The translations under genes were made by a program, and so were the position numbers. Shown here one piece after another: positions 6,322 through 42,682 of a stretch of 64,000 nt of DNA. Numbering within the stretch: position 1 is the first letter of the stretch; each line of letters opens with the position of its first letter. Origin of the DNA: Gemmatimonadales bacterium (GTDB lineage Bacteria > Gemmatimonadota > Gemmatimonadetes > Gemmatimonadales > GWC2-71-9). The DNA lies in the NCBI GenBank assembly GCA_048499805.1, contig JASNZF010000002.1, positions 311,882 through 375,881 on the forward strand, read 5' to 3'. The notes below the pieces were generated by a model. It was not told the origin of the DNA, did not search any database, and worked only from the letters and a program-made list of their open reading frames with translations.

Positions 6322-8129
<1,808 letters not shown>

Positions 8130-8168: not shown

Positions 8169-8207
8169 GGCAGGGTAGCTCAGCTGGTTAGAGCACGGCA
8201 CTCATAA
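8169..8207 (+). pseudogene. 5' half of host tRNA-Met(CAU), ending in the anticodon loop (attL side)
   Basis: Carries the acceptor 5' strand, D-arm, anticodon-stem 5' strand cggca and loop ctcataa. Identical to 8321-8348 of the intact tRNA up to position 27. It is followed by non-tRNA AT-rich sequence (tgacgtgcctcatttttgg...) with no T-arm. Confidence 0.8.
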
Positions 8208-8320
8208 TGACGTGCCTCATTTTTGGACGGGTTCTCAACTCTTGTATTCACAATGGGTTGCCCTTAGGTTGATCGCCCCGGTGCTTGGTATGTACCACCG
8301 GCTGTACCATTGCAGTGCTT

Positions 8321-8394
8321 GGCAGGGTAGCTCAGCTGGTTAGAGCACCACACTCATAATGTGGGGGTCGCGGGTTCGAGTCCCGCCCCTGCTA
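8321..8394 (+). tRNA. tRNA-Met (anticodon CAU, elongator-like), intact, element-borne
   Basis: A 74-nt cloverleaf folded by hand: acceptor ggcaggg/ccctgct (G1-U72), D-arm gctc/gagc, anticodon stem ccaca/tgtgg, loop ctCATaa, variable gggtc, T-arm gcggg-ttcgagt-cccgc, discriminator a. No encoded CCA. Confidence 0.93.
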
Positions 8395-8402
8395 TTCCCA
8401 AG

Positions 8403-8429
8403 AAGCCCCTATCCCTCCGGACGGGGCTT
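8403..8429 (+). terminator. Stem-loop immediately downstream of the tRNA
   Basis: aagcccc (8403-8409) pairs with ggggctt (8423-8429) around a 13-nt loop, followed by a T-containing tail tgatgtt. Confidence 0.45.
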
Positions 8430-8476
8430 TGATGTTCTCCACCCGATGTATCCCCCGATCCTGCCCCGGAATCGGG

Positions 8477-8520
8477 CCGGACTTTCGCCCGGACTTTCGG
8501 CCGGTTGTTTCTGGACTTCT
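8477..8520. repeat. Tandem ccggactttcg repeats (2 full copies plus 1 partial) between tRNA and int
   Basis: ccggactttcg occurs at 8477-8487 and 8489-8499. A partial copy, tggacttc, is at 8512-8519. These are possible arm-type integrase or Xis binding sites. Confidence 0.4.
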
Positions 8521-8578
8521 GGCGCCCTGTCATGGGCTATTCCCAGGACTATCCCTGAAAACAGTCCAGCTCCGCCCG

Positions 8579-9700
8579 CTAGGCTCCCGTCGATTCGCCT
8601 GAACGCCGAGCTATGTCTTGGACGGCAGCGATCCGTTCCCAATCGATCATCTCCTGCTCGGTGGGCTGGAATCGCCCGTATACCCGAACTGCCATTGTGG
8701 TATCCGCGTGCCCCAATTGTCGAGCCACGACCTCGAACGAGGCCCCTGCCCGAACTGCACGGACAGCGTAGGTATGTCGAGCATCCTTTAGCTGATAGTC
8801 CTCAATGTCCAACGCCTTGCAGGCTTCTCGATGCTTGTCGCTAGCTGTCCATCGATTGATACCTGGGAATACAGGGGCGTTTGGCGTGAAGAGGGAGATG
8901 TGGCGTTCGACTGTCGGCCAAGCCCAGTCAGCCACTTTGGCGATTCTCTCACGGGCGTGCGTTTTGGTGCCCTTGGCCCAGATTTCACGGCGTACCGTAT
9001 CAAAGTGACGACGCTTCAGACCGATGGCGACTGAGACCTCCATCCCAGTACCATGCAGAAGCGCCGAGATCACATTGTAGGGACGGGGAAGCGCCTCGAC
9101 CAGCCTCAAAACCTCCTCATGTTCCAGGTACCGCATTCTCGGCTTGGCGGGCGGAGGTGCCTTCACCTCTCGCATTGGATTGCGTTCCAGCACCCCCACC
9201 GACTTGAGGTATTCGCAGAAGCCGGAGAGAGCGGCGTGATACTTTCTCTTGGTCGATCTTCCGACGCGGCGCGAGGACAACCATCCAAGTATCCTCTCGT
9301 GGGTTAGCGCCGACCGGGGAAACCGCTTCCCCTCAGGCAACAGTGACCGTACGTAGAGCCTGTAGTGGTCTCTTGTGTCGGGCGCTTTGTGTGCGGCGAC
9401 TACCCGCAACCAGTCCTCTACGTAGCTCTCCAGGTCAACATCTGACAGGCGTTGCCGGAGCCCATCGAGGGTTCCCGTGGTGTACGCGTCGAAAAGCTCA
9501 GGGACGCTTAGAGCACGCTCAGCGATGGGACTCAGGAACTCCCAGCAGCGTTTGCCACTCGGGCCGAGGTCGTCAATCATCCTCCCCATCGCCTTGGCAA
9601 CAGCCTTGTCGCGCGTTCCCGTGGTTCGCTTGGTCCAGATACCGCCGCGAGTTGGGATGCTCACGAACCAAGTGCGCCCCCGAAGGATGATGCTGCTCAT
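8579..9700 (-). CDS. int: Tyrosine recombinase / phage-type integrase
   Basis: Has an N-terminal SAM-like core-binding region. The C-terminal catalytic region has ARHTYAV (Arg II), LGHADTTM (His) and VRVYGRF (Tyr). The Box I position reads TGMEVSV instead of TGxRxxE. ATGA overlap with the upstream xis. Confidence 0.9.
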   Translation of the reverse strand: MSSIILRGRTWFVSIPTRGGIWTKRTTGTRDKAVAKAMGRMIDDLGPSGKRCWEFLSPIAERALSVPELFDAYTTGTLDGLRQRLSDVDLESYVEDWLRVVAAHKAPDTRDHYRLYVRSLLPEGKRFPRSALTHERILGWLSSRRVGRSTKRKYHAALSGFCEYLKSVGVLERNPMREVKAPPPAKPRMRYLEHEEVLRLVEALPRPYNVISALLHGTGMEVSVAIGLKRRHFDTVRREIWAKGTKTHARERIAKVADWAWPTVERHISLFTPNAPVFPGINRWTASDKHREACKALDIEDYQLKDARHTYAVRAVRAGASFEVVARQLGHADTTMAVRVYGRFQPTEQEMIDWERIAAVQDIARRSGESTGA

Positions 9701-9918
9701 GTACCGACCCGGGGCTTAGGATGGGCTAGGTGTTGGTTGGCATGGGCGACCAAGTCGCAGCGGCGGTACCGACGACTCCGACCAAGGCGGACGAACGGAA
9801 TGCCGCTCCCATACAGCCAGCTGGGGGACATCTTGAGGAATCGGGCAGCACCCTTGACCGAGAGGAACTCGTCAGGGCTATTGCCTTCGGAATCGGGATT
9901 GGGCATATTTGAGGGCAT
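9697..9918 (-). CDS. xis: AlpA/excisionase-family HTH DNA-binding protein
   Basis: LSVKGAARFLKMSPSWLYGSGIPFVRLGRSRRYRRCDL matches the HTH_17/AlpA pattern. Translationally coupled to int. Confidence 0.75.
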   Translation of the reverse strand: MPSNMPNPDSEGNSPDEFLSVKGAARFLKMSPSWLYGSGIPFVRLGRSRRYRRCDLVAHANQHLAHPKPRVGT

Positions 9919-9970
9919 AAGGGCTCGGCTCCGGAGGGACTTAGTTCCCCCCTGGTGGTTGACGTCTCTG

Positions 9971-10013
9971 GCGAGTTGCTTGTGTCCCCTCCAAGGTCAC
10001 GCAAGCAACTCGT
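9971..10013. promoter_or_regulatory. 11-bp perfect-stem hairpin between the small acidic ORF and xis
   Basis: cgagttgcttg (9972-9982) is the reverse complement of caagcaactcg (10002-10012), with a 19-nt loop. It could be a terminator for the upstream minus-strand genes or an operator in front of xis-int. Confidence 0.45.
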
Positions 10014-10020
10014 TTCGCTT

Positions 10021-10170
10021 TCACTCGGTCTCGTCGTCCTCGTCCTCTTCGTCGTCTACTGAGTTTGCATCGAGGCCCAACACCTCCCCGATGGAATCGT
10101 AGACTTCTTCCAGCTTCGCCCGATACTCGGCGTTCTCCAACTCAAGCTCCGCCTTGGTCGCCTGTCCCAT
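10021..10170 (-). CDS. Small acidic coiled-coil protein (49 aa), not in the ORF track
   Basis: My own translation: MGQATKAELELENAEYRAKLEEVYDSIGEVLGLDANSVDDEEDEDDETE. ATG is preceded by a strong SD (aaaggaggtgaagaac ATG). It lies 21 nt downstream of the 99-aa HTH gene. Confidence 0.55.
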   Translation of the reverse strand: MGQATKAELELENAEYRAKLEEVYDSIGEVLGLDANSVDDEEDEDDETE

Positions 10171-10191
10171 GTTCTTCACCTCCTTTCGCAT

Positions 10192-10491
10192 TTAGACTTC
10201 GCCTACCAAACGCCGTCCATTTTCCGCGGCAAACTTGCGGAGCCTGGAAACCCGGATCATAGAAACCCCATCCACCTCGTCTGCGAGTAGCCTCCGTGCC
10301 TTCACCCACTGGAATACAGCGACCCGGGAGACTGGGGGGTCGAACATTACGGCGGCCTCAGCTTGGGAGACGAATCCGTTTGCTGGGACAAGGCGGGTAT
10401 AGGTCCGTCCTCGCAAATTCATTTCGAACTCAAAGCCTCCATCAGGGGTCGGAAACGCCTCAAGGCTGTCTTCGGGGCGAGAGTATGCCAT
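10192..10491 (-). CDS. HTH DNA-binding protein (99 aa), probable element regulator
   Basis: VSQAEAAVMFDPPVSRVAVFQWVKARRLLADEVDGVSMIRVSRLRKF looks like an excisionase/MerR-type HTH. SD aggaag sits just upstream of the ATG. Confidence 0.6.
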   Translation of the reverse strand: MAYSRPEDSLEAFPTPDGGFEFEMNLRGRTYTRLVPANGFVSQAEAAVMFDPPVSRVAVFQWVKARRLLADEVDGVSMIRVSRLRKFAAENGRRLVGEV

Positions 10492-10510
10492 GGCTTCCTA
10501 GGGTGGGGGA

Positions 10511-10531
10511 ACTTAACGGCACCCGTTAAGT
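10511..10531. promoter_or_regulatory. 21-bp palindrome in the divergent regulatory region
   Basis: acttaacgg-cac-ccgttaagt has perfect 9-bp arms. It lies between the minus-strand regulator genes and the plus-strand cargo genes. Confidence 0.5.
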
Positions 10532-10752
10532 AACTTAGCAGAGATGGTAAAGAGCGCAAGTCTCCCCCGTTCGTGACCCCCCATGGGCCGAGTTGCATGA
10601 GCTCACCCCGGCGGATTGCGTCTGGGAGAAGCCGGAGGTAGCGCGCTAAGCGCTCCAGATCACGGAGCTCCTCGGCTTGCGAAGGGCTCAATTCTGGCCG
10701 ATGTTCCACCCGACCTAGCTGTGACGCCCCCCCCCGGCCCATAGGACTGAGC

Positions 10753-11688
10753 ATGAATGCCTCCGCCAAGAATAGCTCTGAGGCTGCTGAGGTGCGCATT
10801 GAGGTGCGGTATCGCGGAAAGGCTGTCGATAGTGGGCGAATGTCTGCGGTTGACCTCGGCCCGGCAATCTTTGGGCTGGGGAAGGCGGTGGAGGAAACAG
10901 GTCGCATCCTCTATGGACCTGAGGCAATGGTCCGAGTGGAGGTTGAAGCTCATTTTCGGGCCGCTTCCTTCGGCCTGGATTGCTACGCGGTTAGTGAGTC
11001 TGCGGACTTGCTACTCGGGCTCTCGTGGGAGCAGATCGGTGTGATCGTCGCAGTTCTGGGATTCAACGTTCGGGAGGGAATCAAAGATGTCCTCGGCCTG
11101 CTCCGACGGCAGAACCGCCGTGCGATTGAGAATGTGGTTATCAATGGAGACGTCGTAACTTTCAACTTCCATGGTGATGCGCCAGACCAACTCACCCTAA
11201 AGGAGTACCGCACGCTGACCGACTCCGAGGTCCGTGGAGGCCTGCGCGCGATGCTGTCACCTCTGGAGCGGGAAGGGGTCGACAGTGTTGAGCTGAAAGC
11301 GGACGGTGCGGAACCAGTATTGGTTGGCAAGGAAGACATGCTTCTGTTTGAAGCACCAGCGGGACCCATAGTGGATCAGGCCGTCTCGGTTGACACGGGA
11401 AGGGCCGTCCTAGAAGTTGTTGGCCCGATCTTCAAAGCAGACAACATGTGGCTCTTTTCCCAGGGTGGCAGTGAATTCAAGGCAAACATCGCCGATCGGA
11501 ATTTTCTCCGCGAGGTTGGCTCCCATCGGCTACTATTTGGCGCCGGAGACGCCATCATCGCTGACGTCGAAACCACGACCAATCGGTCAAATGGACGGCT
11601 TTCGTATAGACGGAAGATCCTGAGGGTTCATAAGCACATCCAAGGCGACGGCAGTCACAACCAACTTGATATACTAGATGCTGATTAG
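10753..11688 (+). CDS. Hypothetical protein (311 aa), cargo gene A
   Basis: Long ORF with protein-like composition in the lower-GC island. I recognise no motif. One moderately hydrophobic segment (LLLGLSWEQIGVIVAVLGFNV). Confidence 0.65.
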   Translation: MNASAKNSSEAAEVRIEVRYRGKAVDSGRMSAVDLGPAIFGLGKAVEETGRILYGPEAMVRVEVEAHFRAASFGLDCYAVSESADLLLGLSWEQIGVIVAVLGFNVREGIKDVLGLLRRQNRRAIENVVINGDVVTFNFHGDAPDQLTLKEYRTLTDSEVRGGLRAMLSPLEREGVDSVELKADGAEPVLVGKEDMLLFEAPAGPIVDQAVSVDTGRAVLEVVGPIFKADNMWLFSQGGSEFKANIADRNFLREVGSHRLLFGAGDAIIADVETTTNRSNGRLSYRRKILRVHKHIQGDGSHNQLDILDAD

Positions 11689-11762
11689 GGAGTCTCCTGG
11701 TCTGGTTGCCTTGGCAGCGCTGCCACAATCGACCGTGCGCCAAATGTGAAAAGAGGGCGTGC

Positions 11763-12749
11763 ATGACGACGATTGACCTGCAGCGAATGCCGCGAACGGA
11801 GTGGCACCGCATATCGTACTTGCTTGGCCCAGCTATTCCCGATGTGCTGGGGCTCTCTGCAGAGTGGGTCCAGGAGAACTATCCGGCAAGAGATGCATTG
11901 GCGCTCTGTATTGAGTTTCTCAAGCAAGACTTGGTTGACGCGGTTCCAGCCGACCTTGATAGCCTTGGGCGACTCTGGTACTACCCTTGGGTCCAGGCCG
12001 AGTACGAGCTTGAGCTGTCGCTCGCGTACGCTCTCATGTCGTTACATCGAGCTGCATATGATCACCAGCGCAGAGGCCTGGAACTTGTTGCCGTTGGCTC
12101 GTACTTCATTTCGGAGCATGTTACGGAGGAGCAGGCGCATGCGTGGCGCGGCGCGAAGGAACCGACACCATACCTAACGAGGGCGATAGATCGGTTGTCG
12201 CGCACCGGGTTCCCAGCGGAGTTGGAAAGGAAGATCGGTTGGGTGGGGAGGCTAAAGGATCAATATTGGGCTCTCTCCGACATCGCGCATGTCCGTGGGA
12301 CTGAGAATGCCCTTGATGTGATTCAGCCGAGTACTGTCTATTTGGATGGCCTCCCCATGCCACTGCTCCACCCCAAGGCGCTAGCAAGAACGCTCGATTC
12401 ATACAGGGTCGTTGCCCAGAATGTTGCCCTGCTGCTCGTGGCGACGAACCCTGTTCTTGCCCTACCCCTTCCGATGGACGAGAAGTTTGGGCTACACGGG
12501 CCTGTCTCGGGGTTCTTTCAGGAGTACTCAGTTGATCGATTGAGCAAGGTCATCGGCGAGCCTCTTTGGTCAGCGGTAAGCGCAGCAGCCGAGGCGGACC
12601 CCACTGCGAGCTCTCTGCGAGAATCGATTGAGAGTCTTCCGGACTTGACCGAAGCTGAGTTCAAGCAACAAGTCGAGGAGGAGCGCCTTACATGGGATGC
12701 TTCCAGTCGGCCGCCAGCTGATGGGCAAGCGGAGGAGGGGGGCGGGTGA
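11763..12749 (+). CDS. Hypothetical alpha-helical protein (328 aa), cargo gene B; possible HEPN-like R-x4-H motif
   Basis: ATG 11763 is preferred; track ORF starts at TTG 11706. Helix-rich composition. SLHRAAYDHQRRG gives R96-x4-H101 counted from ATG 11763. Acidic C-terminal tail. Confidence 0.65.
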   Translation: MTTIDLQRMPRTEWHRISYLLGPAIPDVLGLSAEWVQENYPARDALALCIEFLKQDLVDAVPADLDSLGRLWYYPWVQAEYELELSLAYALMSLHRAAYDHQRRGLELVAVGSYFISEHVTEEQAHAWRGAKEPTPYLTRAIDRLSRTGFPAELERKIGWVGRLKDQYWALSDIAHVRGTENALDVIQPSTVYLDGLPMPLLHPKALARTLDSYRVVAQNVALLLVATNPVLALPLPMDEKFGLHGPVSGFFQEYSVDRLSKVIGEPLWSAVSAAAEADPTASSLRESIESLPDLTEAEFKQQVEEERLTWDASSRPPADGQAEEGGG

Positions 12750-13064
12750 AGGTGGTGTGCCCGACTGAAGCGGCCGCCCTGAAGTGCAAGAGTCTCAGTT
12801 GATGATGCCCCTCATGAAGAACGTCGGCACTTGCGAGAGGAAGTAGAGAATTGATGTGGCTGGCAAGCCCCTGGGGGCCCCACAGGGAGAGCAGCCCCAA
12901 TGGCAGGGACCAAGGGACCAACGCGTGGTAGGCCGTTCGGCTTATGGCCAGGATTGCTCAATCACGAAAAGCACTAACTGTCTCAGGGCAAGACCCCGCG
13001 GCGCTGGCTGAGGGGCATCCGTACCAACTTCCACCTCCTTTGAGCTTCAGAGCGGGAATCATCT

Positions 13065-15941
13065 ATGTCTCAGAAGGTCGATAGGCTGAAGGCGTTTGTT
13101 GAATATGTTGGCCTTCTCAGCGGAGACGAAAAGGGGGAGGCGCAAGTTTTCTGCGACCGATTGTTTCAGGGTTTTGGCCATGCAGGGTACAAGGAAGCTG
13201 GGGCCACCCTAGAGTTTCGCGTCCGGAGGGCAACGGGAACCGGATTCGCGGATCTGGTCTGGCCAGGGCGGCTGCTGCTTGAGATGAAGAAACGGGGAGA
13301 AAAGCTTGAACTGCATTACCAGCAGGCGTTTGACTATTGGGTTAGGGCCGTTCCCAATCGCCCCCGCTTCGTGGTTCTTTGCAACTTCGATACCTGCTGG
13401 ATCTATGACTTTGATAGGCAGATCGATGAGCCCGTAGACATCGTCCATGTTGTCGACTTCCCGACTCGCTACCTTGCTTTGAACTTCCTTTTCCCGGAGG
13501 CCCCGGAGCCCGTATTCGGGAATGATCGTGTAGGAGTAACTCGAGAGACGGCAGGCAAGGTTGCTGAAGTGTTCGGCTCCTTGGTCAAGCGTGGAGGCGA
13601 CAGGGTCAAAGCTCAACGGTTCATCCTTCAGTCTGTTGTCGCGATGTTTGCTGAAGACATGGATCTATTGCCGAAGGGCACAATCTATAGAATCGTTGAG
13701 GACTGCAAGAGCGGGGCAAGTAGCTACGATCTGTTTGGCGGGCTCTTTCGACAGATGAACAGTAGGGCGCCCGCACCTGAGGGCAGATACAAGGGCATTC
13801 CCTATTTCAATGGCGGGCTCTTCGAGGTAGTTGAACCAGCGCAGCTGTCGCAGCGTGAGCTGGGGTATCTTGGCGAAGCAGCCGCGGAAGATTGGGCAAA
13901 GGTCAACCCGGCGATTTTCGGAACGCTCTTCCAGCGGAGCATGGACGCCGATGCGCGCCATGCCCAAGGAGCTCACTATACATCTGAGGCGGATGTCCTG
14001 CGCGTCGTTCAGCCCACCATCGTGCGGCCGTGGCAAGAACGTATTGCTGCGGCAAACACGATGAAGGAATTAATGGCAATCAGAACCCAGATGCTCACTT
14101 ATCGGGTTCTCGATCCCGCCTGCGGTAGTGGCAATTTCCTGTACGTGGCATATAGGGAGTTAGCCAAGTTGGAGCTCCAGGCGTTGCTAAAGATGCGGAG
14201 TCTGGTGTCGCCGAAGGAGTTCACAAGGCAGGTCAAGACTCTTTCACTCGTCAGTCCGCGCCAATTCCACGGTGTCGACGTCGACGGGTTCGGCCTTGAA
14301 CTGGCAAAGGTTACGCTGATGCTCGCCAAGAAGCTCGCCTTGGACGAGGCCGTGCAGGTCCTTGAGCGGGAGCAAGTGGACCTAGATCTTCATGAAGATC
14401 ATGCTCTGCCTCTGGATAACCTTGATGCAAACTTTATTCAAGGCGACGCTCTGTTTCTTTCCTGGCCTGTGGCTGACGCGATCATCGGGAATCCGCCGTT
14501 TCAAAGCAAGAACAAGATGCAAGCGGAGTTCGGAAAGGCATATGTCAACAGGGTCCGGAAGCTCTACCCCGAGATTCCAGGACGCGCTGACTACTGCGTC
14601 TACTGGCTACGACGTGCGCATGATGAGCTAGGGCCTGGTATGAGGGCAGGACTGGTCGGTACCAATACTATCCGCCAAAACTACAGTCGCGAAGGTGGGC
14701 TCGACTACATCGTATCAACAGGGGGTACGATCACAGAAGCTGTTGCGACTCAAGTGTGGTCGGGCGAGGCCGTCGTCCATGTGTCAATTGTAAATTGGGT
14801 TAAGGGGGTACAACCGGGCAAGAAGCGCCTGTTCCGGCAGATTGGGGATCGACGAGACTCTCCTTGGGAGATGGCTGAGGTCGATGAGATCAATGCCTCT
14901 CTTTCCTTCGGTGTCGACACTACCGGCGTGGGGACTGTCGCTGTCAGCGCAAAGGCTGGGGGGTGCTACCAAGGACAAACGCACGGTCACAAAGGGTTTC
15001 TTTTGTCGAGGGCGGAAGCCGACGTTGAGCGCGCTGCAAATGCGAATGCGTCGGAGGTCCTATTCCCATACATGACTGCGGACGACCTGCTCGGTGAGCC
15101 AGACTCCAGGCCGACGAGATGCGTTATTGACTTTGGAAACAGCGATTTGCTGGAGTGTGGGAAATTCCCAAGGCTCCTGAGGCGCATCGAGGAGAGTGTC
15201 CTCCCGACGCGCCAGGAGGCGGCACAGAGGGAAAGTGCTCGCAATGAGGAGGCACTAGCTGATGATGCAGAGGGTAGGACCAACAAGGATCATGAAGCGG
15301 CGCTGGGAAGGTGGTGGCAGTTGTTTAGGCGTCGGGCGGAGATGCTCGCCGCGATCAGGGCTATTGACCGTTACATCGTTTGCGGGAGGGTCACGCGACG
15401 CCCTATCTTCGAGTTTGTCTGCGCTTCGGTAAATCCGAATGATGCCTTAATGGTCTTCCCCTATAGGGATGACTATTCGTTCGGCATTTTGCAGTCGGGT
15501 GTCCACTGGGCGTGGTTTACGGATAGGTGTTCGACGATGAAAGCGGATTGGCGCTACACGTCCAATTCCGTGTTTGATACGTTTCCTTGGCCGCAAATGC
15601 CGTCGCCGAAGGCGGTGGCGGACGTGATTGCTGCCGCAGTTGAGGTGCGCACCAAGCGTCGTATGCTAATGAAGAAGCATAAACTCTCGCTGCGAGAGCT
15701 CTATCGGGCGATGGACAAGCCTGGCAAACATGACCTGGGCGCTGCGCATGCAGCCCTGGATGCAGCCGTGTATCGGGCGTACGGGTGGGGGAAGAAAGTG
15801 AATATTCTCGGCGCCCTTGTAGAGTTGAACCAAGTGCTGATTGCCAGAGAGCAGAAGGGGCAGGCTGTGCGTGGTCCAGGGTGGCCGCTCGCGGCGAATG
15901 CGCTGAAGGGATCTGTCACGAAGGATTGCATAGGCGGCTAG
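13065..15941 (+). CDS. MmeI-family type IIL (IIG) single-chain restriction endonuclease / N6-adenine DNA methyltransferase
   Basis: N-terminal PD-(D/E)xK motif with MmeI spacing (GFADLVWPGRLLLEMKKRG, i.e. D63-x9-E73-x-K75). SAM motif I VLDPACGSGNFL and motif IV IIGNPPFQ. Size of 958 aa matches this family. Confidence 0.85.
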   Translation: MSQKVDRLKAFVEYVGLLSGDEKGEAQVFCDRLFQGFGHAGYKEAGATLEFRVRRATGTGFADLVWPGRLLLEMKKRGEKLELHYQQAFDYWVRAVPNRPRFVVLCNFDTCWIYDFDRQIDEPVDIVHVVDFPTRYLALNFLFPEAPEPVFGNDRVGVTRETAGKVAEVFGSLVKRGGDRVKAQRFILQSVVAMFAEDMDLLPKGTIYRIVEDCKSGASSYDLFGGLFRQMNSRAPAPEGRYKGIPYFNGGLFEVVEPAQLSQRELGYLGEAAAEDWAKVNPAIFGTLFQRSMDADARHAQGAHYTSEADVLRVVQPTIVRPWQERIAAANTMKELMAIRTQMLTYRVLDPACGSGNFLYVAYRELAKLELQALLKMRSLVSPKEFTRQVKTLSLVSPRQFHGVDVDGFGLELAKVTLMLAKKLALDEAVQVLEREQVDLDLHEDHALPLDNLDANFIQGDALFLSWPVADAIIGNPPFQSKNKMQAEFGKAYVNRVRKLYPEIPGRADYCVYWLRRAHDELGPGMRAGLVGTNTIRQNYSREGGLDYIVSTGGTITEAVATQVWSGEAVVHVSIVNWVKGVQPGKKRLFRQIGDRRDSPWEMAEVDEINASLSFGVDTTGVGTVAVSAKAGGCYQGQTHGHKGFLLSRAEADVERAANANASEVLFPYMTADDLLGEPDSRPTRCVIDFGNSDLLECGKFPRLLRRIEESVLPTRQEAAQRESARNEEALADDAEGRTNKDHEAALGRWWQLFRRRAEMLAAIRAIDRYIVCGRVTRRPIFEFVCASVNPNDALMVFPYRDDYSFGILQSGVHWAWFTDRCSTMKADWRYTSNSVFDTFPWPQMPSPKAVADVIAAAVEVRTKRRMLMKKHKLSLRELYRAMDKPGKHDLGAAHAALDAAVYRAYGWGKKVNILGALVELNQVLIAREQKGQAVRGPGWPLAANALKGSVTKDCIGG

Positions 15942-16110
15942 GCGATAAGATGCCACCTACAAAGGCAGGATTTGGTATGGGTACTGAGGCAGGGCGAGTT
16001 GTGTCAGCCATTCTCGTTGTTCAACGCGCACGTGAGGCACTTGTGTCTTGTGCACGCGGCAATAGAGCGCGGTACTCGCGCATCGGGCGAGTCGTGGCAG
16101 CGGAGTTACG

Positions 16111-17235
16111 GTGAGTGGGCCGGTCGTGCTGTTGGACAAGTCAGTCTTTCAAGCATTGTCGTACCGTGAACACGTCGCGTTGAATCGACATTTCTTCGTT
16201 GGTGTACCTCCCATTCTAGTATTTGAGGTCCTCGGTGATCTCGCGAAGGTCCCGCGAGGAGGAAAGTCGCCACCAGAGAAGGTGGCAGAGTTGTCCAAGA
16301 AGTTTTTTGGAAGCGGAGGCCCGATCATTATGAACTGGCGGGTTCTTTGCATTCAAGCGCTACTTGGAGCCAACGTGCCAATGACTGGTCAAATTGTACC
16401 TGACAATTGGACGACTACACCGGATGGGCAGGGTGTGATGATTGACCTGTCCCCAATGAACGAAGCTATTCGACGATGGCAGAGGGCCGCGTTCGCCACG
16501 TGGGAAGGCGAGTATTCCACGCGTTGGCGAACGGAGACAGCTTCTCTGAGCTTCGGCTCCTTGGAGGGTGTACTACGGCAGAACGCGTTCATCATTCCGC
16601 CTCCTCCGTCGCCAGATGCTCTGATGGTTGTTGTAGATGAGGTTCTTGCCACGCCAGCTGCTCAAGAGTTGTTACTAACATGGATTGTCGGGCAAGTGCG
16701 TCCCAGTGCCGTCGAGAAGGAACACATCGCCTCACGCTGGAACCAAGGGAGTGACCGGAGGCTGGTCACTTTTGCCCCCTACGCGCACCACTGTATGCGA
16801 GCATTGGTGGCGCTCATCGCGGCTGTACGGCACAAGATGCTGCGCTGGGAGAGTACGCTCTATCTTGACCTCCAGTACCTGTTTTATCTTCCGTTCTGCA
16901 ACGTCTTGTTTTCCGAGGATCGGTCACATCGAACTCTCGCTCCAGGGCTATTGAGAGCAGACCAGGCGTTTGCCCGACTTGAACCACTTAAAGCTGACCT
17001 AAGGCGACTGAGCGACATTGCGGAGAAGTTGACCCCAGACGAGGCACGACGGAGGAGCTTTTCCCATAACTCCTACCCAGTACCAGCTGCTAACTCAATT
17101 GTTTGGGGCCTATGGCGGCGCTATTGCTCCCCGTGGAGTCCGAGAATGGTGAACGTTGCCTCGCAACTGCCTCCGGAGGAGAAGGCGCTCGCGATAGCAG
17201 AAGCTAGCGCTCTTTTTGCGCCCTTCCAGTCGTGA
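16111..17235 (+). CDS. Hypothetical protein (374 aa), cargo gene D; N-terminal PIN-like pattern
   Basis: GTG start is preceded by ggag. VVLLDKSVFQAL ... ILVFEVLGDL ... NVLFSEDRSH resembles the acidic-residue pattern of PIN-like nucleases with a large insertion; this domain call is inference. The 3' end overlaps rep by 126 nt. Confidence 0.6.
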   Translation: MSGPVVLLDKSVFQALSYREHVALNRHFFVGVPPILVFEVLGDLAKVPRGGKSPPEKVAELSKKFFGSGGPIIMNWRVLCIQALLGANVPMTGQIVPDNWTTTPDGQGVMIDLSPMNEAIRRWQRAAFATWEGEYSTRWRTETASLSFGSLEGVLRQNAFIIPPPPSPDALMVVVDEVLATPAAQELLLTWIVGQVRPSAVEKEHIASRWNQGSDRRLVTFAPYAHHCMRALVALIAAVRHKMLRWESTLYLDLQYLFYLPFCNVLFSEDRSHRTLAPGLLRADQAFARLEPLKADLRRLSDIAEKLTPDEARRRSFSHNSYPVPAANSIVWGLWRRYCSPWSPRMVNVASQLPPEEKALAIAEASALFAPFQS

Positions 17236-18420
17236 TGCACCTTTGCCAGGAGCAGTCAAAGCGGCAATCGCTTTCGCAATTGCATCAGAGGGGACATAGC
17301 CAGTCAGGGCCACCCCCGTGCGGCCATCAATCCAATCGTGAAATGGCTGATGCCATTCCCATCGCACGGCCTCGCCGTAGCGGACAGGTGAAACCGTATT
17401 GCCATCGGTGCCGATTGTAGCGTCCTCGTCGTCCTTGGCGTCACAGTGAATCCGAAAGCCCATAGGCTGGAAAACCCGCCTGCCTTTCATCGCGCGAAAG
17501 ATCACGTCCAGGTTCGCCGGTGCGATTGGCTCAGGGCAAGAGCCTGGGAGGCGTGTTAGTAGCTTAGTGAAATACTTGAATAGCTCAAACAGGCTGCCTG
17601 GATCAGTCGCGCGGATGTCCTGCGCCTCTCGCATGGCATGTGGCCAAGCACGTAGCCAGCGTCTGACCAGTGCCTCAGCCTGAGCTTTGTCCGCCACGAC
17701 AATATGAAAATGTGGGTGATAGTCATCGCGTCGTCGATTGTAGGTGCACTCTAGCTTGCGCAAAGCGCGAAACGGTAGCCCATCCGTGCGCCTTATTGCT
17801 CTGCCTGTAGAGGTTATCACCTTTAGCATGCGCTGAATCGTTGAGGGCAACATCGTCCTACAGACATTCGGGATTGTCAGGGTGACGAAATGGGCGTGGT
17901 GCCATCTGCTGAGTTCTGGCATGTACCGATTTATTGACCGCGCAGTCCGCACTCGATTGCAGACCATGCACCATCTTGCTCCACAATATTTGCCCCTCAG
18001 GGTGCCTGACTCATCTTGATCGAGCCGCCCAGCGCAGTACACGGTATTGCGATAGCTCAGCTCCAGCGGTGACCTCAGTTCGGCCAAGCGCACCGCCAGA
18101 GGTAGGCTGAAATACTTGGCCCGCGCTCGCTTGACCAACGTTCCCTTGGCGTCACCATCTGGCTTTTGGCAGGGTTGTGCTAACGTATCAAGGGGCGGGG
18201 GCTGCGCCCCCGCCGCTACGCTCGCCCGTTCCGGGCTCGCTTCCACGCGCCCTGCGGGCGCGTGGGGAGCCTTCGGCTCCTTGGCTTCCCACGATGTCGC
18301 TTGGCCGGCATTGGAGGGCCCTAGCGGGCCTCTTGCGCCCTGGGCGGCCCTCCGGGTGGGCTGGGAGCCCCACAGACTCCCCCTTCCCGATCCGGCCTCG
18401 GTAGGGGCGCTCGGCGGCAC
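17110..18420 (-). CDS. rep: Rolling-circle replication initiator, pC194/pUB110 (Rep_1)-type HUH protein; true start probably TTG at 18138
   Basis: Zinc-finger-like CGARWCMVCNRVR, HUH motif YHPHFHIVVAD, and catalytic FELFKYFTK (Glu-x3-Tyr as in pC194 RepA). The N-terminal 94 codons of the track ORF are Pro/Gly/Ala-rich and span hairpins. TTG 18138 is in frame with aaggga upstream. Confidence 0.85.
   Translation of the reverse strand: MPPSAPTEAGSGRGSLWGSQPTRRAAQGARGPLGPSNAGQATSWEAKEPKAPHAPAGRVEASPERASVAAGAQPPPLDTLAQPCQKPDGDAKGTLVKRARAKYFSLPLAVRLAELRSPLELSYRNTVYCAGRLDQDESGTLRGKYCGARWCMVCNRVRTARSINRYMPELSRWHHAHFVTLTIPNVCRTMLPSTIQRMLKVITSTGRAIRRTDGLPFRALRKLECTYNRRRDDYHPHFHIVVADKAQAEALVRRWLRAWPHAMREAQDIRATDPGSLFELFKYFTKLLTRLPGSCPEPIAPANLDVIFRAMKGRRVFQPMGFRIHCDAKDDEDATIGTDGNTVSPVRYGEAVRWEWHQPFHDWIDGRTGVALTGYVPSDAIAKAIAALTAPGKGASRLEGRKKSASFCYRERLLLRRQLRGNVHHSRTPRGAIAPP
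18185..18280 (-). promoter_or_regulatory. Candidate double-strand origin: CTTGATA nick-site heptamer plus three consecutive GC hairpins
   Basis: On the rep strand, cttgatac corresponds to + strand coordinates 18185-18192. Hairpins: ggcgggggc-tgc-gcccccgcc (18194-18214), cacgcgccc-tgc-gggcgcgtg (18244-18264), ggagcc-ttc-ggctcc (18266-18280). All lie just upstream of the TTG 18138 start. Confidence 0.5.
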
Positions 18421-18546
18421 GGCACCAGGATCCCGATGACATGTACCACCAGGTGTACCAGAAGTGGTGTAGCGTGGTGTAGAACCAGGATGTCTGGTGC
18501 TAGGCTTTGTGCGGGGTGGGACGGTGCCGACTGGCCTTGTCCGGCC

Positions 18547-18588
18547 CTCATAATGCCGGGGTCGCGGGTTCGAGTCCCGCCCCTGCTA
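18547..18588 (+). pseudogene. 3' half of host tRNA-Met(CAU), from anticodon loop to discriminator (attR side)
   Basis: Carries loop ctcataa, stem 3' strand tgccg, variable gggtc, T-arm and acceptor 3' strand. The tgccg strand pairs 5/5 with cggca at 8196-8200. The last 32 nt are identical to 8364-8395. Confidence 0.8.
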
Positions 18589-18589
18589 T

Positions 18590-18683
18590 GGGAGCGAGAA
18601 GTGGGAAGCGAGAAGGGAGCAGTGCACTCCCGGAGTCGCAAACCCGACTTCTCACTTCTTGCTTCTTGCTTCTTGCTTCTCCC
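18590..18683. repeat. Purine-rich / pyrimidine-rich heptamer inverted repeat immediately after the tRNA 3' end
   Basis: Left arm is gggagcgagaagt gggaagcgagaag (18590-18615). Right arm is five tandem heptamers cttctca cttcttg cttcttg cttcttg cttctcc (18648-18682). The arms can pair, with G-U pairs, as a long hairpin. Confidence 0.6.
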
Positions 18684-19093
18684 GCCTTGCTTTCGCCATG
18701 CCCCTCTGGCTCTCCACCGGACTCCTGCGGGCCTTCGCCGGGTTCGAGAAGGGGACCCCAGCTACTACCTCGGCAAGCACCCCTCTCACGCCAAGCTGGC
18801 GATCTGCATCCTGGTCGTTGCCCCGGAGATCATGCCGATGGCCACCCTGGTGCGGGGGCGCCTGAGTCTGCATCGCGGCCAGCCGCTGGTGGCCGACCGC
18901 GCCCGGGCCCTGCCCGTTGTGGGCGTCGTCCAGGTGATCCTCGTGGTCGTGTTGCTCCTTTTCGCCGCCGCCATGGCGCGCGGCACCGGGAGCTGACCCG
19001 GCACTTTCATCCCGGTATCATCGATTCGTCATTCGGCCGTTCCTACCTTTGGGGTGGAGGCGGGGTGCCAGCCCCCGCCCCGAAGGAGTCGAC

Positions 19094-40466: not shown

Positions 40467-41354
40467 ATGAGCCAGGAGGGCGCCGGCATCGCGCGGGGGA
40501 TCGCCTCGGTGCGCACCGGGCTGCTGGTCAACGCCGGCCTGGCGGTGGTCAAGCTTGCTGCGGGCGTGGTGGGGCACGCCTATGTACTGGTGGCGGACGC
40601 CATCGAGTCGCTGGCGGACTGCTTCGCATCGCTCGTGGTGTGGCGGGGCCTGAGCCTGGCCGCCCGTGGGGCCGACCGGGACTACCCGTTCGGGTACGGA
40701 CGGGCGGAACCGCTCGCCGGCGCGATCGTCGGCCTGATGATGGTCGCTGCGGCCGTGGGGATCGCCGCCCAGGCCTGGCGCGAGATCGTGACCCCCCACC
40801 ACGCCCCGGCCCCCTTTACCCTGGCGGTCCTGGTCCTTGTCGTGGTGGTGAAGGAAGGCCTCTTTCGCACCGTGCTCCGCACCGGCGTGGCCATCGGCAG
40901 CACCGCGGTCCGGGCGGACGCCTGGCACCACCGCAGCGACGCCATTACTTCGCTCGCCGCCTTTGTCGGGATCGGAGTCGCGCTCGCGGGCGGCCCGGGC
41001 TGGGAGCCGGCCGACGACTTCGCGGCCCTGTTCGCGAGCGGGGTCATCCTCCTCAACGCCCTGCGCATTCTCCGGCCCGCCGTTGAGGAGTTGATGGACC
41101 GGGCGCCCGGAGAGGAGGTGGTCGCTGCGGTGGCCGGCGCCGCGCGTGCCGTGGACGGTGTACGGGCCATCGAGCACCTGAGGGTGCGAAAGGTCGGCAC
41201 CAGTTTCCTGACGGACCTGCATGTCCAGGCCGACCCTGGGCTGTCGCTGCACGACGCCCACATCCTCAGCGGGATGGTGAAGGGCGCGATCCGACGTGCA
41301 GTTCCCGCCGTGACGGGCGTCCTAGTCCACATGGAACCGTTCGAGCACCGATGA
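40467..41354 (+). CDS. Cation diffusion facilitator family transporter
   Basis: Six TM pattern, HRSDAITSLAAFVGI motif, C-terminal cytoplasmic domain. Confidence 0.85.
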   Translation: MSQEGAGIARGIASVRTGLLVNAGLAVVKLAAGVVGHAYVLVADAIESLADCFASLVVWRGLSLAARGADRDYPFGYGRAEPLAGAIVGLMMVAAAVGIAAQAWREIVTPHHAPAPFTLAVLVLVVVVKEGLFRTVLRTGVAIGSTAVRADAWHHRSDAITSLAAFVGIGVALAGGPGWEPADDFAALFASGVILLNALRILRPAVEELMDRAPGEEVVAAVAGAARAVDGVRAIEHLRVRKVGTSFLTDLHVQADPGLSLHDAHILSGMVKGAIRRAVPAVTGVLVHMEPFEHR

Positions 41355-42682
41355 GCCTCGAGCACCGGCTGGCCACCGAGCTCGGTCGCCTCGGCCTGCC
41401 CCCCTGCCGCCTGGTCCTCGGCGTCAGCGGTGGCCCCGACTCGCTCGCCCTGCTGCACCTGATGGATCAGGTCGCGCTCCCGCTCGGGTTCGAGCTCGTG
41501 GTGGCCCACGCCGATCATCGGCTCCATCCCGACAGCCAGGCAGTGGCCGCCCTGGTGGCCCGGTGCGCCGAGTCGCTGGCGCTGCCGGTGGTGATCGGGC
41601 AGCTCGACCTGGCCCCGGGCGCCGGTGAATCGGAGGCCCGTACCGCCCGCCATGCCTGGCTGGAGCGGGTCCGGATCGACCAGGGCGCCACGTACCTCGT
41701 CCTCGGCCACCAGCGGGACGACCAGGCCGAGACCGTCCTCATGCGGGTGCTGGCGGGGTCGGGGCCCGCCGGTTTGGCGGCCATGGCGGCGGTGCAGGGA
41801 ACCGTGGTGCGGCCGCTGCTCGCCTTCTCCCGGCGCGAACTCGCCGACCATGTCGCCGCGATCGGGTGGCGGCCCTGGGACGATCCGGCGAACACCGACC
41901 CCCGGCACACCCGGAGTTGGCTCCGCTCCGTGGTGCTGCCCCAGGTGGCGGCCCGAGACCCGGCGGTGGCCGATCGCCTGGTCGGCGCGGCAGCCCAGGC
42001 CGCCACGGGACGCCAGGCCTGGGACGCCGTCCTCGATCTCCTCCCCGGCCTCGCGCCCACCGCGGAACCTGAGGGCGTTTCCTTTGCCGCCGCCCCCCTG
42101 ATGGGGTATCATTCCGGGTTGGCCCAGACCCTGATCCAGGCGGCTGGACGGCGCGCCGGAGCGGTGGTCGGGCCGGCAGCGGCGGGGCGGGTGCTGGCGA
42201 TGATCCAGGCCGGCCGGAGCGGCGCCTGGGTACCGCTCGGCGGGGGGTGGCGGGCGGAGCTGGCCTTTGGCCGGGTCCGGATCGTTCCCGACGCCCCCCC
42301 CTCGGGGTTCCCGGCGCGGGAAGTCGGTCGGGAGGCGGCCGGCGTCGCGGCCTGCGGGCCGCGCCGGTTGCGGTGGTCCCGCGAGTTGGCGCCGGAATGG
42401 ATCCCGCGCGACGGCTGGACCTCCTGGTTCATCCCCGGGGCGTACACCCTGCGGGCCTGGACCGCCGGCGACCAGCTCCGTCCGCTGGGTGGGGTGGGAC
42501 GACGATTGGCGGTTCGCTGCCTGCAGGACGCCCGGGTGCCCAGGACGGACCGTGCAACCTGGCCGGTGCTGACAGCGGCGGACCATGGACCCCTGGTATG
42601 GATTCCGGGTATCTGTCGGGCAGAGGAGGCGCTGCCCCGGCCCGGTTCGGAGGCCTTGCGCATTGACGTTGAACCAGGATGA
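41351..42682 (+). CDS. tilS: tRNA(Ile)-lysidine synthase
   Basis: PP-loop LGVSGGPDSLALLHL. Conserved position upstream of hpt-ftsH. Confidence 0.88.
   Translation: MSLEHRLATELGRLGLPPCRLVLGVSGGPDSLALLHLMDQVALPLGFELVVAHADHRLHPDSQAVAALVARCAESLALPVVIGQLDLAPGAGESEARTARHAWLERVRIDQGATYLVLGHQRDDQAETVLMRVLAGSGPAGLAAMAAVQGTVVRPLLAFSRRELADHVAAIGWRPWDDPANTDPRHTRSWLRSVVLPQVAARDPAVADRLVGAAAQAATGRQAWDAVLDLLPGLAPTAEPEGVSFAAAPLMGYHSGLAQTLIQAAGRRAGAVVGPAAAGRVLAMIQAGRSGAWVPLGGGWRAELAFGRVRIVPDAPPSGFPAREVGREAAGVAACGPRRLRWSRELAPEWIPRDGWTSWFIPGAYTLRAWTAGDQLRPLGGVGRRLAVRCLQDARVPRTDRATWPVLTAADHGPLVWIPGICRAEEALPRPGSEALRIDVEPG

Follow-up and report, generated by a model that had tools for sequence, protein, structure and literature searches.

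We examined a 64,000-nucleotide (nt) stretch of DNA from a Gemmatimonadales bacterium (contig JASNZF010000002.1, positions 311,882 to 375,881 of the forward strand), hereafter the window, which holds an integrated element of about 10.35 kb bordered by the two halves of a broken transfer RNA (tRNA) gene. The best explanation of the locus, to which we assign a probability of roughly 0.82, is that integration of the element breaks the host tRNA-Met gene and that the element brings along a replacement tRNA. According to this explanation, a small element encoding an integrase, an Xis-like protein, Rep_1 and defense cargo would insert into the anticodon loop of the host elongator tRNA-Met gene. The short core would leave the host gene as two dead halves at the left and right attachment sites (attL and attR), and the element's own tRNA-Met(CAU), which lies right after the P′ arm-type integrase sites and is co-oriented with the broken gene, would take over decoding. 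The host would then be expected to depend on the element tRNA.

The element carries an intact tRNA-Met beside a split host gene

The features that define the element and its attachment sites are as follows.

8169..8209, + strand: 5′ half of the disrupted host elongator tRNA-Met (positions 1 to ~40) at attL, ending in the core CTCATAATG (8201-8209)
8210..8216, + strand: element-side junction ACGTGCC, from an alignment of eight junctions
8292..8309, + strand: putative P′ arm-type integrase sites, GTACCACCGGCTGTACCA, with two TG[T/A]ACCA units, ending 11 nt before the element tRNA
8321..8394, + strand: intact element-borne tRNA-Met(CAU), labeled P, found by ARAGORN and by Rfam at 72.3 bits, with a 70/74 match to the rejoined host tRNA
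8402..8430, + strand: GC-rich hairpin just 3′ of the element tRNA, terminator-like with a weak U tract (-16.3 kcal/mol, z = -2.29 by folding)
18443..18460, + strand: putative P arm-type integrase sites, GTACCACCAGGTGTACCA, 87-104 nt left of the core
18547..18588, + strand: attR, consisting of the core CTCATAATG (18547-18555) and the displaced host tRNA-Met 3′ half (18556-18588), identical to the commonest 3′ fragment of related loci (15 copies)
8210..18555, no strand: whole integrated element, ~10.35 kb with one core copy counted, from the composition profile and the att junctions

ARAGORN found a single tRNA in the 64-kb window, a tRNA-Met(CAT), and the Rfam tRNA model scored the same gene far above its threshold of 29 bits and returned a complete cloverleaf. 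The host 5′ fragment reads GGCAGGG...CACGGCACTCATAATG and is followed by non-tRNA sequence, ACGTGCCTCATTTTT. Located 152 nt upstream of the intact tRNA, it copies the first 28 nt of that gene exactly and then continues as CGGCA-CTCATAATG. The host 3′ fragment, CTCATAATGCCGGGG...CCCCTGCTA, is preceded by non-tRNA sequence and lies 10.3 kb from the 5′ half; attR reads ...GTCCGGCC-CTCATAATG-CCGGGGTCGCGGGTTCGAGTCCCGCCCCTGCTA; the last 20 nt of the intact tRNA are found once more in this fragment, at 18567-18586. No chance matches are expected for either half, and neither ARAGORN nor Rfam called a tRNA at the attL or attR junction.

Joining 8169-8209 to 18556-18588 gives a 74-nt tRNA, and 70 of its 74 positions agree with the intact gene. 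The four remaining sites (gene positions 29, 30, 42 and 43; standard positions 28, 29, 41 and 42) form two compensatory anticodon-stem pairs, which change from host to element as G28-C42 to C-G and G29-C41 to A-T, and the stem reads CCACA/TGTGG in the element tRNA versus CGGCA/TGCCG in the host tRNA. An earlier note on this DNA (the original prediction) had described an intact tRNA-Met(CAU) near attL with 70/74 identity and two anticodon-stem pair swaps, all of which we confirmed; the gap between core and tRNA (8209 to 8321), given there as 113 bp, is 111 nt. A further claim, that identity with the host extends upstream as CTT, is true of the window, but the trinucleotide is not conserved in the seven other elements described below and is best read as coincidence. 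The rejoined halves equal the commonest Gemmatimonadota tRNA-Met allele, found in 11 copies in related loci, which indicates that they are pieces of a genuine host gene.

Two hairpins follow these tRNA sequences. The one after the element tRNA (8402-8430) was not called by a simple terminator scan. The other, a 97-nt near-perfect GAGAAG/CTTCTT-repeat hairpin at 18590-18685 (-52.4 kcal/mol, z = -5.25), lies directly after the host tRNA 3′ end; it gave weak, spurious microRNA matches in Rfam and may be the host tRNA terminator or a repeat element.

Strand exchange is confined to the anticodon loop

The core CTCATAATG is 9 bp long and places the crossover in the anticodon loop. The sequence shared by attP and the target is only the 7-9 bp loop CTCATAA(TG), and the usual 42-bp tRNA 3′ half is missing from attP. 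At attL the core is followed by ACGTGCCTCATTTTT and not by a tRNA 3′ half, and thus the tRNA is not regenerated as it is in canonical integration. In two related elements (L031 and L161) the eighth core base is unequal between attL and attR (G or A versus T), which confines strand exchange to CTCATAA, the 7-nt anticodon loop itself.

On the element side of the junction, the motif [T/G/A]G[A/C]CGTGCC is common to all eight elements in which the host tRNA is split (split-type elements). In the window, ACGTGCC and the preceding TG form an imperfect inverted repeat of the host GCACGGCA with one mismatch; the repeat, TG[A/C]CGTGC across the elements, is perfect in L168. This arrangement suggests that ACGTGCC is a putative C′ core-type half-site. 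The junction hairpin and its T-run were also considered as a terminator of the truncated tRNA transcript. That reading was rejected: the fold is no more stable than shuffled sequence (z = -0.27), it was absent from the calls of the terminator scan, and L168, L160 and L170 have no T-run. The feature was kept as a DNA-level inverted repeat.

The arm-type sites locate attP on the same junction. By chance the pattern GTACCAC-N4-TGTACCA would not be expected in the 64-kb window at all; it is present exactly twice, at 8292-8309 and at 18443-18460. The TG[T/A]ACCA pairs are placed around the junction core and not around the core sequence of the element tRNA, at about -104 to -87 on the left and, counted from the first base of the core, about +92 to +109 on the right. 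After the P arm-type sites, GTGGTGTAG occurs twice at 18464-18482. Between elements the arm motif varies (GTACCA, GAACCA, GTACTA), yet it co-varies on both sides within each element, which is the behavior expected of arm-type integrase sites. In relatives that restore their tRNA, the left pair of the motif occupies about -107 to -88 and the right pair about +111 to +131, beyond the tRNA 3′ half and a terminator hairpin. From these positions, the 111-nt 'spacer' of the window is the P′ arm of attP, with the tRNA gene starting 11 nt after it. The attP expected from the junctions reads ...TTGTCCGGCC-CTCATAATG-ACGTGCCTCA....

The split layout recurs and is tied to an element-borne tRNA

A search returned 276 integrase homologues, from Gemmatimonadota wherever the source names them, and we sampled 30 genome loci by integrase profile and 13 integrase loci by exact-protein look-up. 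The window layout recurs in seven further elements (L002, L031, L084, L160, L161, L168 and L170). In each the order is the host 5′ half up to the core, [T/G/A]G[A/C]CGTGCC, a spacer of ~80 nt, the TG[T/A]ACCA pair, a complete tRNA-Met starting 4-17 nt after that pair, a hairpin, and int, which runs on the other strand. In L031, L084, L160, L168 and L170 the far end is covered as well, and there x-CGGC[C/T]-CTCATAATG leads into the host 3′ half.

Most of the sampled loci have the ordinary layout, with an intact tRNA-Met beside int and a displaced fragment running from CTCATAATGCCGGGG to the tRNA 3′ end at the far end of a 3-11 kb element (L001, L004, L007, L008, L011-L014, L018, L023, L162, L166 and L167). 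In these tRNA-restoring relatives, some of which belong to the same integrase clade as the window element, a 42-bp core rebuilds the tRNA and none carries its own. A comparison with homologous elements, suggested in the original prediction, thus found an own tRNA in 8 of 8 elements that fail to rebuild their target and in none of the sampled relatives that rebuild it.

The intact tRNA moves as part of the element and was not acquired anew from every host, since host flanks and halves vary independently of it. The T-arms of the host 3′ halves are unlike the element tRNA in L031 and L170, and in L160 the host 5′ fragment has C17 where the element has G17. The enolase and acyltransferase of L031 are 91% and 68% identical, respectively, to those of the window. 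Shared right-flank synteny of these two loci was considered and dropped; the flanking proteins are unrelated (35% over 124 aa), indicating independent host contexts and not a single insertion that both inherited.

The window element itself was found in other samples (L032, SRR21762701; L033, SRR21762700; L173, JGI 3300009873). L173, from another strain, has the window layout at the same site, with a few single-nucleotide polymorphisms in the host flank and the attP arm and none in the tRNA. In L177 (SRR12363710), which encodes an identical enolase protein, the DivIC-tRNA flank runs through the core into ...CTCATAATGCCGGGG and the tRNA is unsplit. Given contigs of both kinds, the insertion may be polymorphic in natural populations.

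We also scanned metagenomes for the junction pattern CTCATAAKGACGTGCC, which matched at least 120 loci; among the matches listed, one was a true junction (L084) and the others were chance 16-mers. The same pattern had six matches in viral contigs, none with tRNA context.

A neighbor-joining (NJ) tree of 69 integrases placed all eight split-type elements in one clade, with at least ~64% identity to the window protein, and the outgroups of this clade restore their tRNA. We sought a one-step route from the ordinary to the split layout, and no convincing rearrangement could be derived.

The tRNA-restoring relatives were seen to stack in tandem at one tRNA-Met, leaving several displaced 3′ fragments (L012, with cores at 11211, 5527 and 3190, and L026). 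A second displaced 3′ fragment was not seen in the split-type stretches sampled, a small sample; its absence would fit site exclusion.

The element tRNA is a conserved elongator-type tRNA

The element tRNA is a canonical CAU cloverleaf in which all 21 stem pairs are standard in every allele. Aligning 5 element and 7 host alleles, we found that 100% of stem cells form standard pairs and that 6 stem pairs have changed on both sides; 0 of 500 shuffles reached these covariation values. We conclude that the element tRNA is structurally conserved and that its cloverleaf has been kept through compensatory changes. A G1.U72 wobble (window 8321 and 8393) tops the acceptor stem and is invariant in 12 of 12 host and element alleles examined, all of them from Gemmatimonadota loci.

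Initiator features are missing from the element tRNA, which shows neither three consecutive G-C pairs at the foot of the anticodon stem nor a 1:72 mismatch (1:72 is G.U). The initiator type of this phylum (CGCGGGG...GGGCTCATAACCC; CGCGGGG..TCGGGCTCATAACCCGA) is a separate gene, present in L003, L008, L014 and others. The best E. coli match of the element tRNA is annotated as tRNA-Met (86% over 59 nt). Its acceptor pairs 4:69 and 5:68 are A-U and G-C; the determinants for E. coli TilS at these pairs are C-G and C-G. The presence of tilS at 41351-42682 (+), claimed in the original prediction, was confirmed by PP-loop ATP_bind_3 and TilS_C domains, and a tRNA-Ile2(CAU) is accordingly to be expected in another part of the genome.

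Alternative explanations and points of weakness

That the intact tRNA is a replacement copy, making the element self-complementing, is well supported by its recurrence in eight elements, by the conserved cloverleaf, by the restoring sisters without a tRNA of their own and by phage precedent. Three other explanations have to be weighed against it. The intact tRNA could be a host gene, if the locus once held two tandem elongator tRNA-Met genes of which the element or a deletion damaged only the first. Two adjacent CAU tRNAs do stand beside the integrase in L003, L008, L014, L015, L024-L026 and L166, but the second is of the initiator type in every such locus, so that each pair is an initiator tRNA-fMet plus one elongator; two tandem elongator genes, which had been named beforehand as the finding that would assign the tRNA to the host, did not occur in the sampled loci. 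The intact tRNA also sits inside an att-bounded low-GC island, 11 nt after arm-type sites. It goes with its integrase clade into eight host contexts where the host halves vary independently, and in the tRNA-restoring relatives L162 and L163 the DivIC locus holds a single elongator gene. We consider a host origin largely refuted already and give it next to no weight. Since most of the integrase family restores its tRNA with an element-borne 3′ half, one could alternatively suppose that integration here was ordinary, that the intact tRNA combines, as usual, a host 5′ half with a 3′ half from the element, and that the upstream fragment is debris of an old rearrangement or partial duplication, from which direct repeats so close together could come. 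The pairing of the halves speaks against this, as CCACA of the intact tRNA pairs with its own 3′ strand and not with the displaced TGCCG, which is the partner of the upstream CGGCA. The arm-type sites are correctly spaced around the junction core, upstream of the intact tRNA, and none follow the tRNA; the 5′ fragment, moreover, ends exactly at the core in eight independent elements and is joined there to a conserved element-side motif. Ordinary integration, which we judge very improbable, implies a circle junction of x-CTCATAATG-TGGGGGTCG, and destruction with replacement implies x-CTCATAATG-ACGTGCC.

The remaining explanation is that the tRNA is cargo with another purpose, such as resistance to a tRNA nuclease that acts on the anticodon arm, another defense role or the tuning of translation, and that other tRNA-Met copies cover the loss. 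These elements do carry defense systems, their tRNA recoding is concentrated in the anticodon arm (see below), and counter-defense has been raised by Hatfull and colleagues as a possible selective force for phage tRNAs (PMC10865867). However, the tRNA occurs only in elements that fail to rebuild their target, and in 8 of 8 of those, as complementation predicts, and its anticodon loop is unchanged. We regard a purely cargo role as unlikely, and defense and complementation are in any case mutually compatible.

Several points weigh against complementation as we describe it. A subclade of restoring elements (L001, L162/P0027 and L167/P0020, grouping with P0019 and P0034) is nested within the split-type clade, so that the history needs a reversion, a module exchange or a repeated origin; the tree fits a single origin with one reversion or att-module swap, a choice that an NJ tree cannot settle. 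No circular (attP) form was recovered, and the element-length contigs L032, L160, L168 and L170 all begin and end in the tRNA repeats of integrated copies. No certainly empty attB was recovered either, as L177 stops inside the tRNA and could carry a tRNA-restoring element. The isotype assignment draws on the CAU anticodon, the missing initiator features and the closest E. coli gene rather than on an isotype-specific model, and on that basis a tRNA-Ile2 identity is still formally allowed. Expression of the element tRNA and its charging with Met are predictions from the gene. We found no sigma-70-like promoter upstream of the element tRNA or the host tRNA, which is uninformative for this phylum. 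Finally, further elongator tRNA-Met genes may lie beyond the 64-kb window and would make the element copy dispensable.

Recoding of the anticodon arm in element tRNAs

Comparison of alleles showed that the element tRNAs differ from the host tRNA in one region. The window, L168, L031 and L161 have CCACA/TGTGG and L002 has CGACA/TGTCG. L084 has G26, TGGCA/TGCCA and A44 along with a compensated T-stem change, and L160 and L170 have G26, CGGCA/TGCUG and A44. All 8 element tRNAs, representing 4 anticodon-arm variants, therefore differ from the host within positions 26-29 and 41-44. The 26 intact host or restored copies are without exception A26-CGGCA/TGCCG-G44, and among ~25 displaced 3′ fragments the anticodon arm is invariant in all but one decayed copy. 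Arm variation is thus found in 8/8 element tRNAs versus 0/26 host copies, or 4/4 versus 0/7 when counted by variant. Six of the 7 distinct changed units fall in five units adjacent to the loop (27:43, 28:42, 29:41, 26 and 44), for which we obtained a rough probability of 4.5e-6. The loop itself is fixed because a change there would alter decoding.

In the usual model of tyrosine recombinases, the anticodon stem provides two inverted core-type half-sites. The putative half-sites in question here are GCACGGCA/TGCCGGGG, and the recoding would keep Int and sibling elements from using the element tRNA as attB. Read from the sequences, any stem produced by core exchange of a host-type half with the window element tRNA would contain one G.G mismatch and one G.U pair. 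We tentatively suggest, while holding it somewhat doubtful, that the recoding may be an adaptive 'anti-attB' device that removes the half-sites CGGCA/TGCCG and, together with the split attB, would reserve the tRNA-Met site for this element alone and lock the defense island in place in an addiction-like manner. If true, sibling elements, which stack in tandem elsewhere, would be excluded, and the host would be dependent on the element-borne tRNA.

The original prediction had interpreted the stem swap as a block to homologous recombination across the core, but stretches of 28 and 12 nt of perfect identity to the host 5′ fragment remain, and removal of integrase core-type half-sites would fit the swap better. 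Gene conversion with the host copy, another earlier proposal, is not needed: position 17 differs in L160 and the T-arm differs in L031 and L170. We had considered conversion ourselves on finding that position 17 agreed between host fragment and element tRNA in the window, L002 and L031, and rejected it as a rule on the evidence of L160, L031 and L170.

Comparison with known systems

Although the arrangement had at first been treated as unprecedented, its principle is already published. In 'tRNA-dependent lysogeny' (Guerrero-Bustamante & Hatfull, mBio 2024, PMC10865867), phages including Fionnbharth (K4), LeBron (L1), Gaia (X), OneUp and others use a tyrosine integrase with attB in a tRNA gene and a core of 8-17 bp, and no tRNA is rebuilt. 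Genetics showed that integrants, in which the essential tRNA is lost, are viable only with a phage tRNA of matching isotype; close integrase relatives whose cores span 40-50 bp restore the tRNA and have no tRNA gene (PMC10865867). The window element shares the tyrosine integrase with arm-type sites, an attB in a tRNA gene, a short core (7-9 bp here) and an integrase tree in which restoring and non-restoring modes are intermixed. Judged by its sequence, it has every feature that defines tRNA-dependent lysogeny at that level.

The differences lie in the element, its host and its tRNA. Unlike the actinobacteriophages, the window element is not a phage; it is ~10 kb long and encodes Rep_1 and restriction or defense cargo. 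Its host phylum is Gemmatimonadota and its target an elongator tRNA-Met. The window tRNA abuts the P′ arm and lies within the attP-int module, whereas the Fionnbharth tRNA overlaps gene 37, away from attP-int. The window tRNA is also near-identical to that of the host except for the recoded anticodon arm, while for Fionnbharth no close relationship of phage and host tRNA is described. Dependence on the element's own tRNA has genetic proof in the actinobacteriophages and comparative evidence for the window element.

A similar case occurs in temperate phages of Rhizobium leguminosarum like vTRX32-1 (PMC8631192), which interrupt a tRNA-Leu at a 12-bp core and carry a full tRNA of the same type; the phage copy is without the 12-bp core, which was suggested as 'preventing super-integration' (PMC8631192). 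The Lactobacillus johnsonii prophage Lj965, cited in PMC10865867, appears to be another such case. In contrast to the Rhizobium phages, the window element is not a phage and its tRNA retains the 9-bp core, which is the anticodon loop, with the flanking stem and positions 26 and 44 changing across the family. From this we propose a rule in which the element tRNA keeps the crossover sequence and would escape targeting through recoding of the flanking stem.

In canonical islands and prophages that target tRNA genes at the anticodon-loop sublocation (the Islander concept, PMC4383910), island sequence regenerates the gene and leaves one intact tRNA and one displaced 3′ fragment. The sister elements with the ordinary layout listed above obey this rule and have the same integrase family, target tRNA, crossover position and arm-type motif as the window element, which is without regeneration. 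Software that finds islands by an intact tRNA and a displaced 3′ fragment will set the boundaries of split-type elements wrongly and may assign the element tRNA to the host.

Elements of the pSAM2 type restore their tRNA target. They resemble the window element in size (~10 kb), in having int, xis and a replication initiator and in integrating into tRNA genes, but they are integrative and conjugative elements of actinomycetes (PMC2440964), another phylum, and no FtsK/Tra-like transfer gene was found among the open reading frames (ORFs) of the window element that we scanned.

What was already known is the principle of breaking a tRNA and bringing a replacement. New here are the phylum, the type of element, which is plasmid-like and carries defense genes, and a consistent recoding of an anticodon arm that is invariant in host copies. 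The break-and-replace strategy therefore reaches beyond actinobacteriophages to a wider range of taxa, including the poorly studied Gemmatimonadota, and of element types. The eight split-type elements and their more than 12 tRNA-restoring relatives, which share integrase family, target and arm motif, are a set in which conversion between the two modes can be studied.

Genes and composition of the element

The flanks have a GC content of 67-77%, which drops to 55-60% in the stretch from ~8.2 to 18.0 kb. The genes of the element and its left flank are as follows.

6556-7836: host enolase, upstream of DivIC in the left flank
7833..8129, + strand: host DivIC/FtsB-like gene in the left flank (Pfam DivIC; 98-aa gene call from the identical loci L173-L177)
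8579..9700, - strand: tyrosine integrase, 373 aa (Pfam Phage_integrase, E = 1.9e-10)
9697..9918, - strand: small HTH_17 protein, overlapping int from upstream (Pfam HTH_17, E = 6.4e-5, below the gathering score)
10753..11688, + strand: PDC-S42 candidate defense protein, cargo (PADLOC PDLC05015, E = 2.6e-48)
13065..15941, + strand: MmeI-type (type IIG) restriction-modification enzyme, cargo (Pfam MmeI_N, MmeI_hel, MmeI_Mtase and MmeI_TRD; PADLOC REase_MTase_IIG, 1390 bits)
17110..18420, - strand: Rep_1 rolling-circle replication initiator (Pfam Rep_1, E = 3.5e-11, residues 143-319)

The host tRNA starts 39 nt after the stop codon of the DivIC/FtsB-like gene. The HTH_17 protein is likely an excisionase or directionality factor of the Xis kind, and its gene precedes int in every related element. 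The true Rep_1 start codon is probably downstream of 18420; Rep_1 was also detected in the relatives L166 and L168. Pfam and PADLOC found no capsid, terminase, tail or lysis domains among the element ORFs. We conclude that this is a plasmid-like integrative element that works like the phage system.

The integrase has weak matches in the PDB to XerA and Brujita Int. At the position of the catalytic Arg-I of these two proteins (TGVRVGE and QGLRVHE, respectively), the family has a nearly invariant Glu (E221 of the window integrase, in TGMEVSV). The family is clearly active, because dozens of precise att junctions exist, and Arg-I must therefore be dispensable or supplied from elsewhere, a situation that has reportedly been described for IntDOT.

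The family appears as a shuttle for defense and restriction cargo on a minimal int-xis backbone, to which Rep_1 is added in the window, L166 and L168. The window carries the MmeI-type IIG enzyme and PDC-S42. Across L160, L161, L162, L166, L167, L168, L170 and L171 the cargo includes TIR/ThsB-like and SIR2 proteins, type ISP restriction-modification, NotI with a methylase, a RES toxin, Mrr with type I-like restriction-modification, and MerC/MerR.

Short direct repeats of the form C[C/T]GGA[C/G]TTT[T/C] occur family-wide in the interval from the tRNA terminator to the end of int. In the window they are seen at 8478-8499 as CGGACTTTCG twice, and relatives, including L001, L167, L170 and L171, have 3-6 copies in the stretch from the tRNA to the stop codon of int. 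Over the whole window the 10-mer shows no enrichment, but its position is conserved, and the repeats may be sites for the directionality factor or extra arm-type sites.

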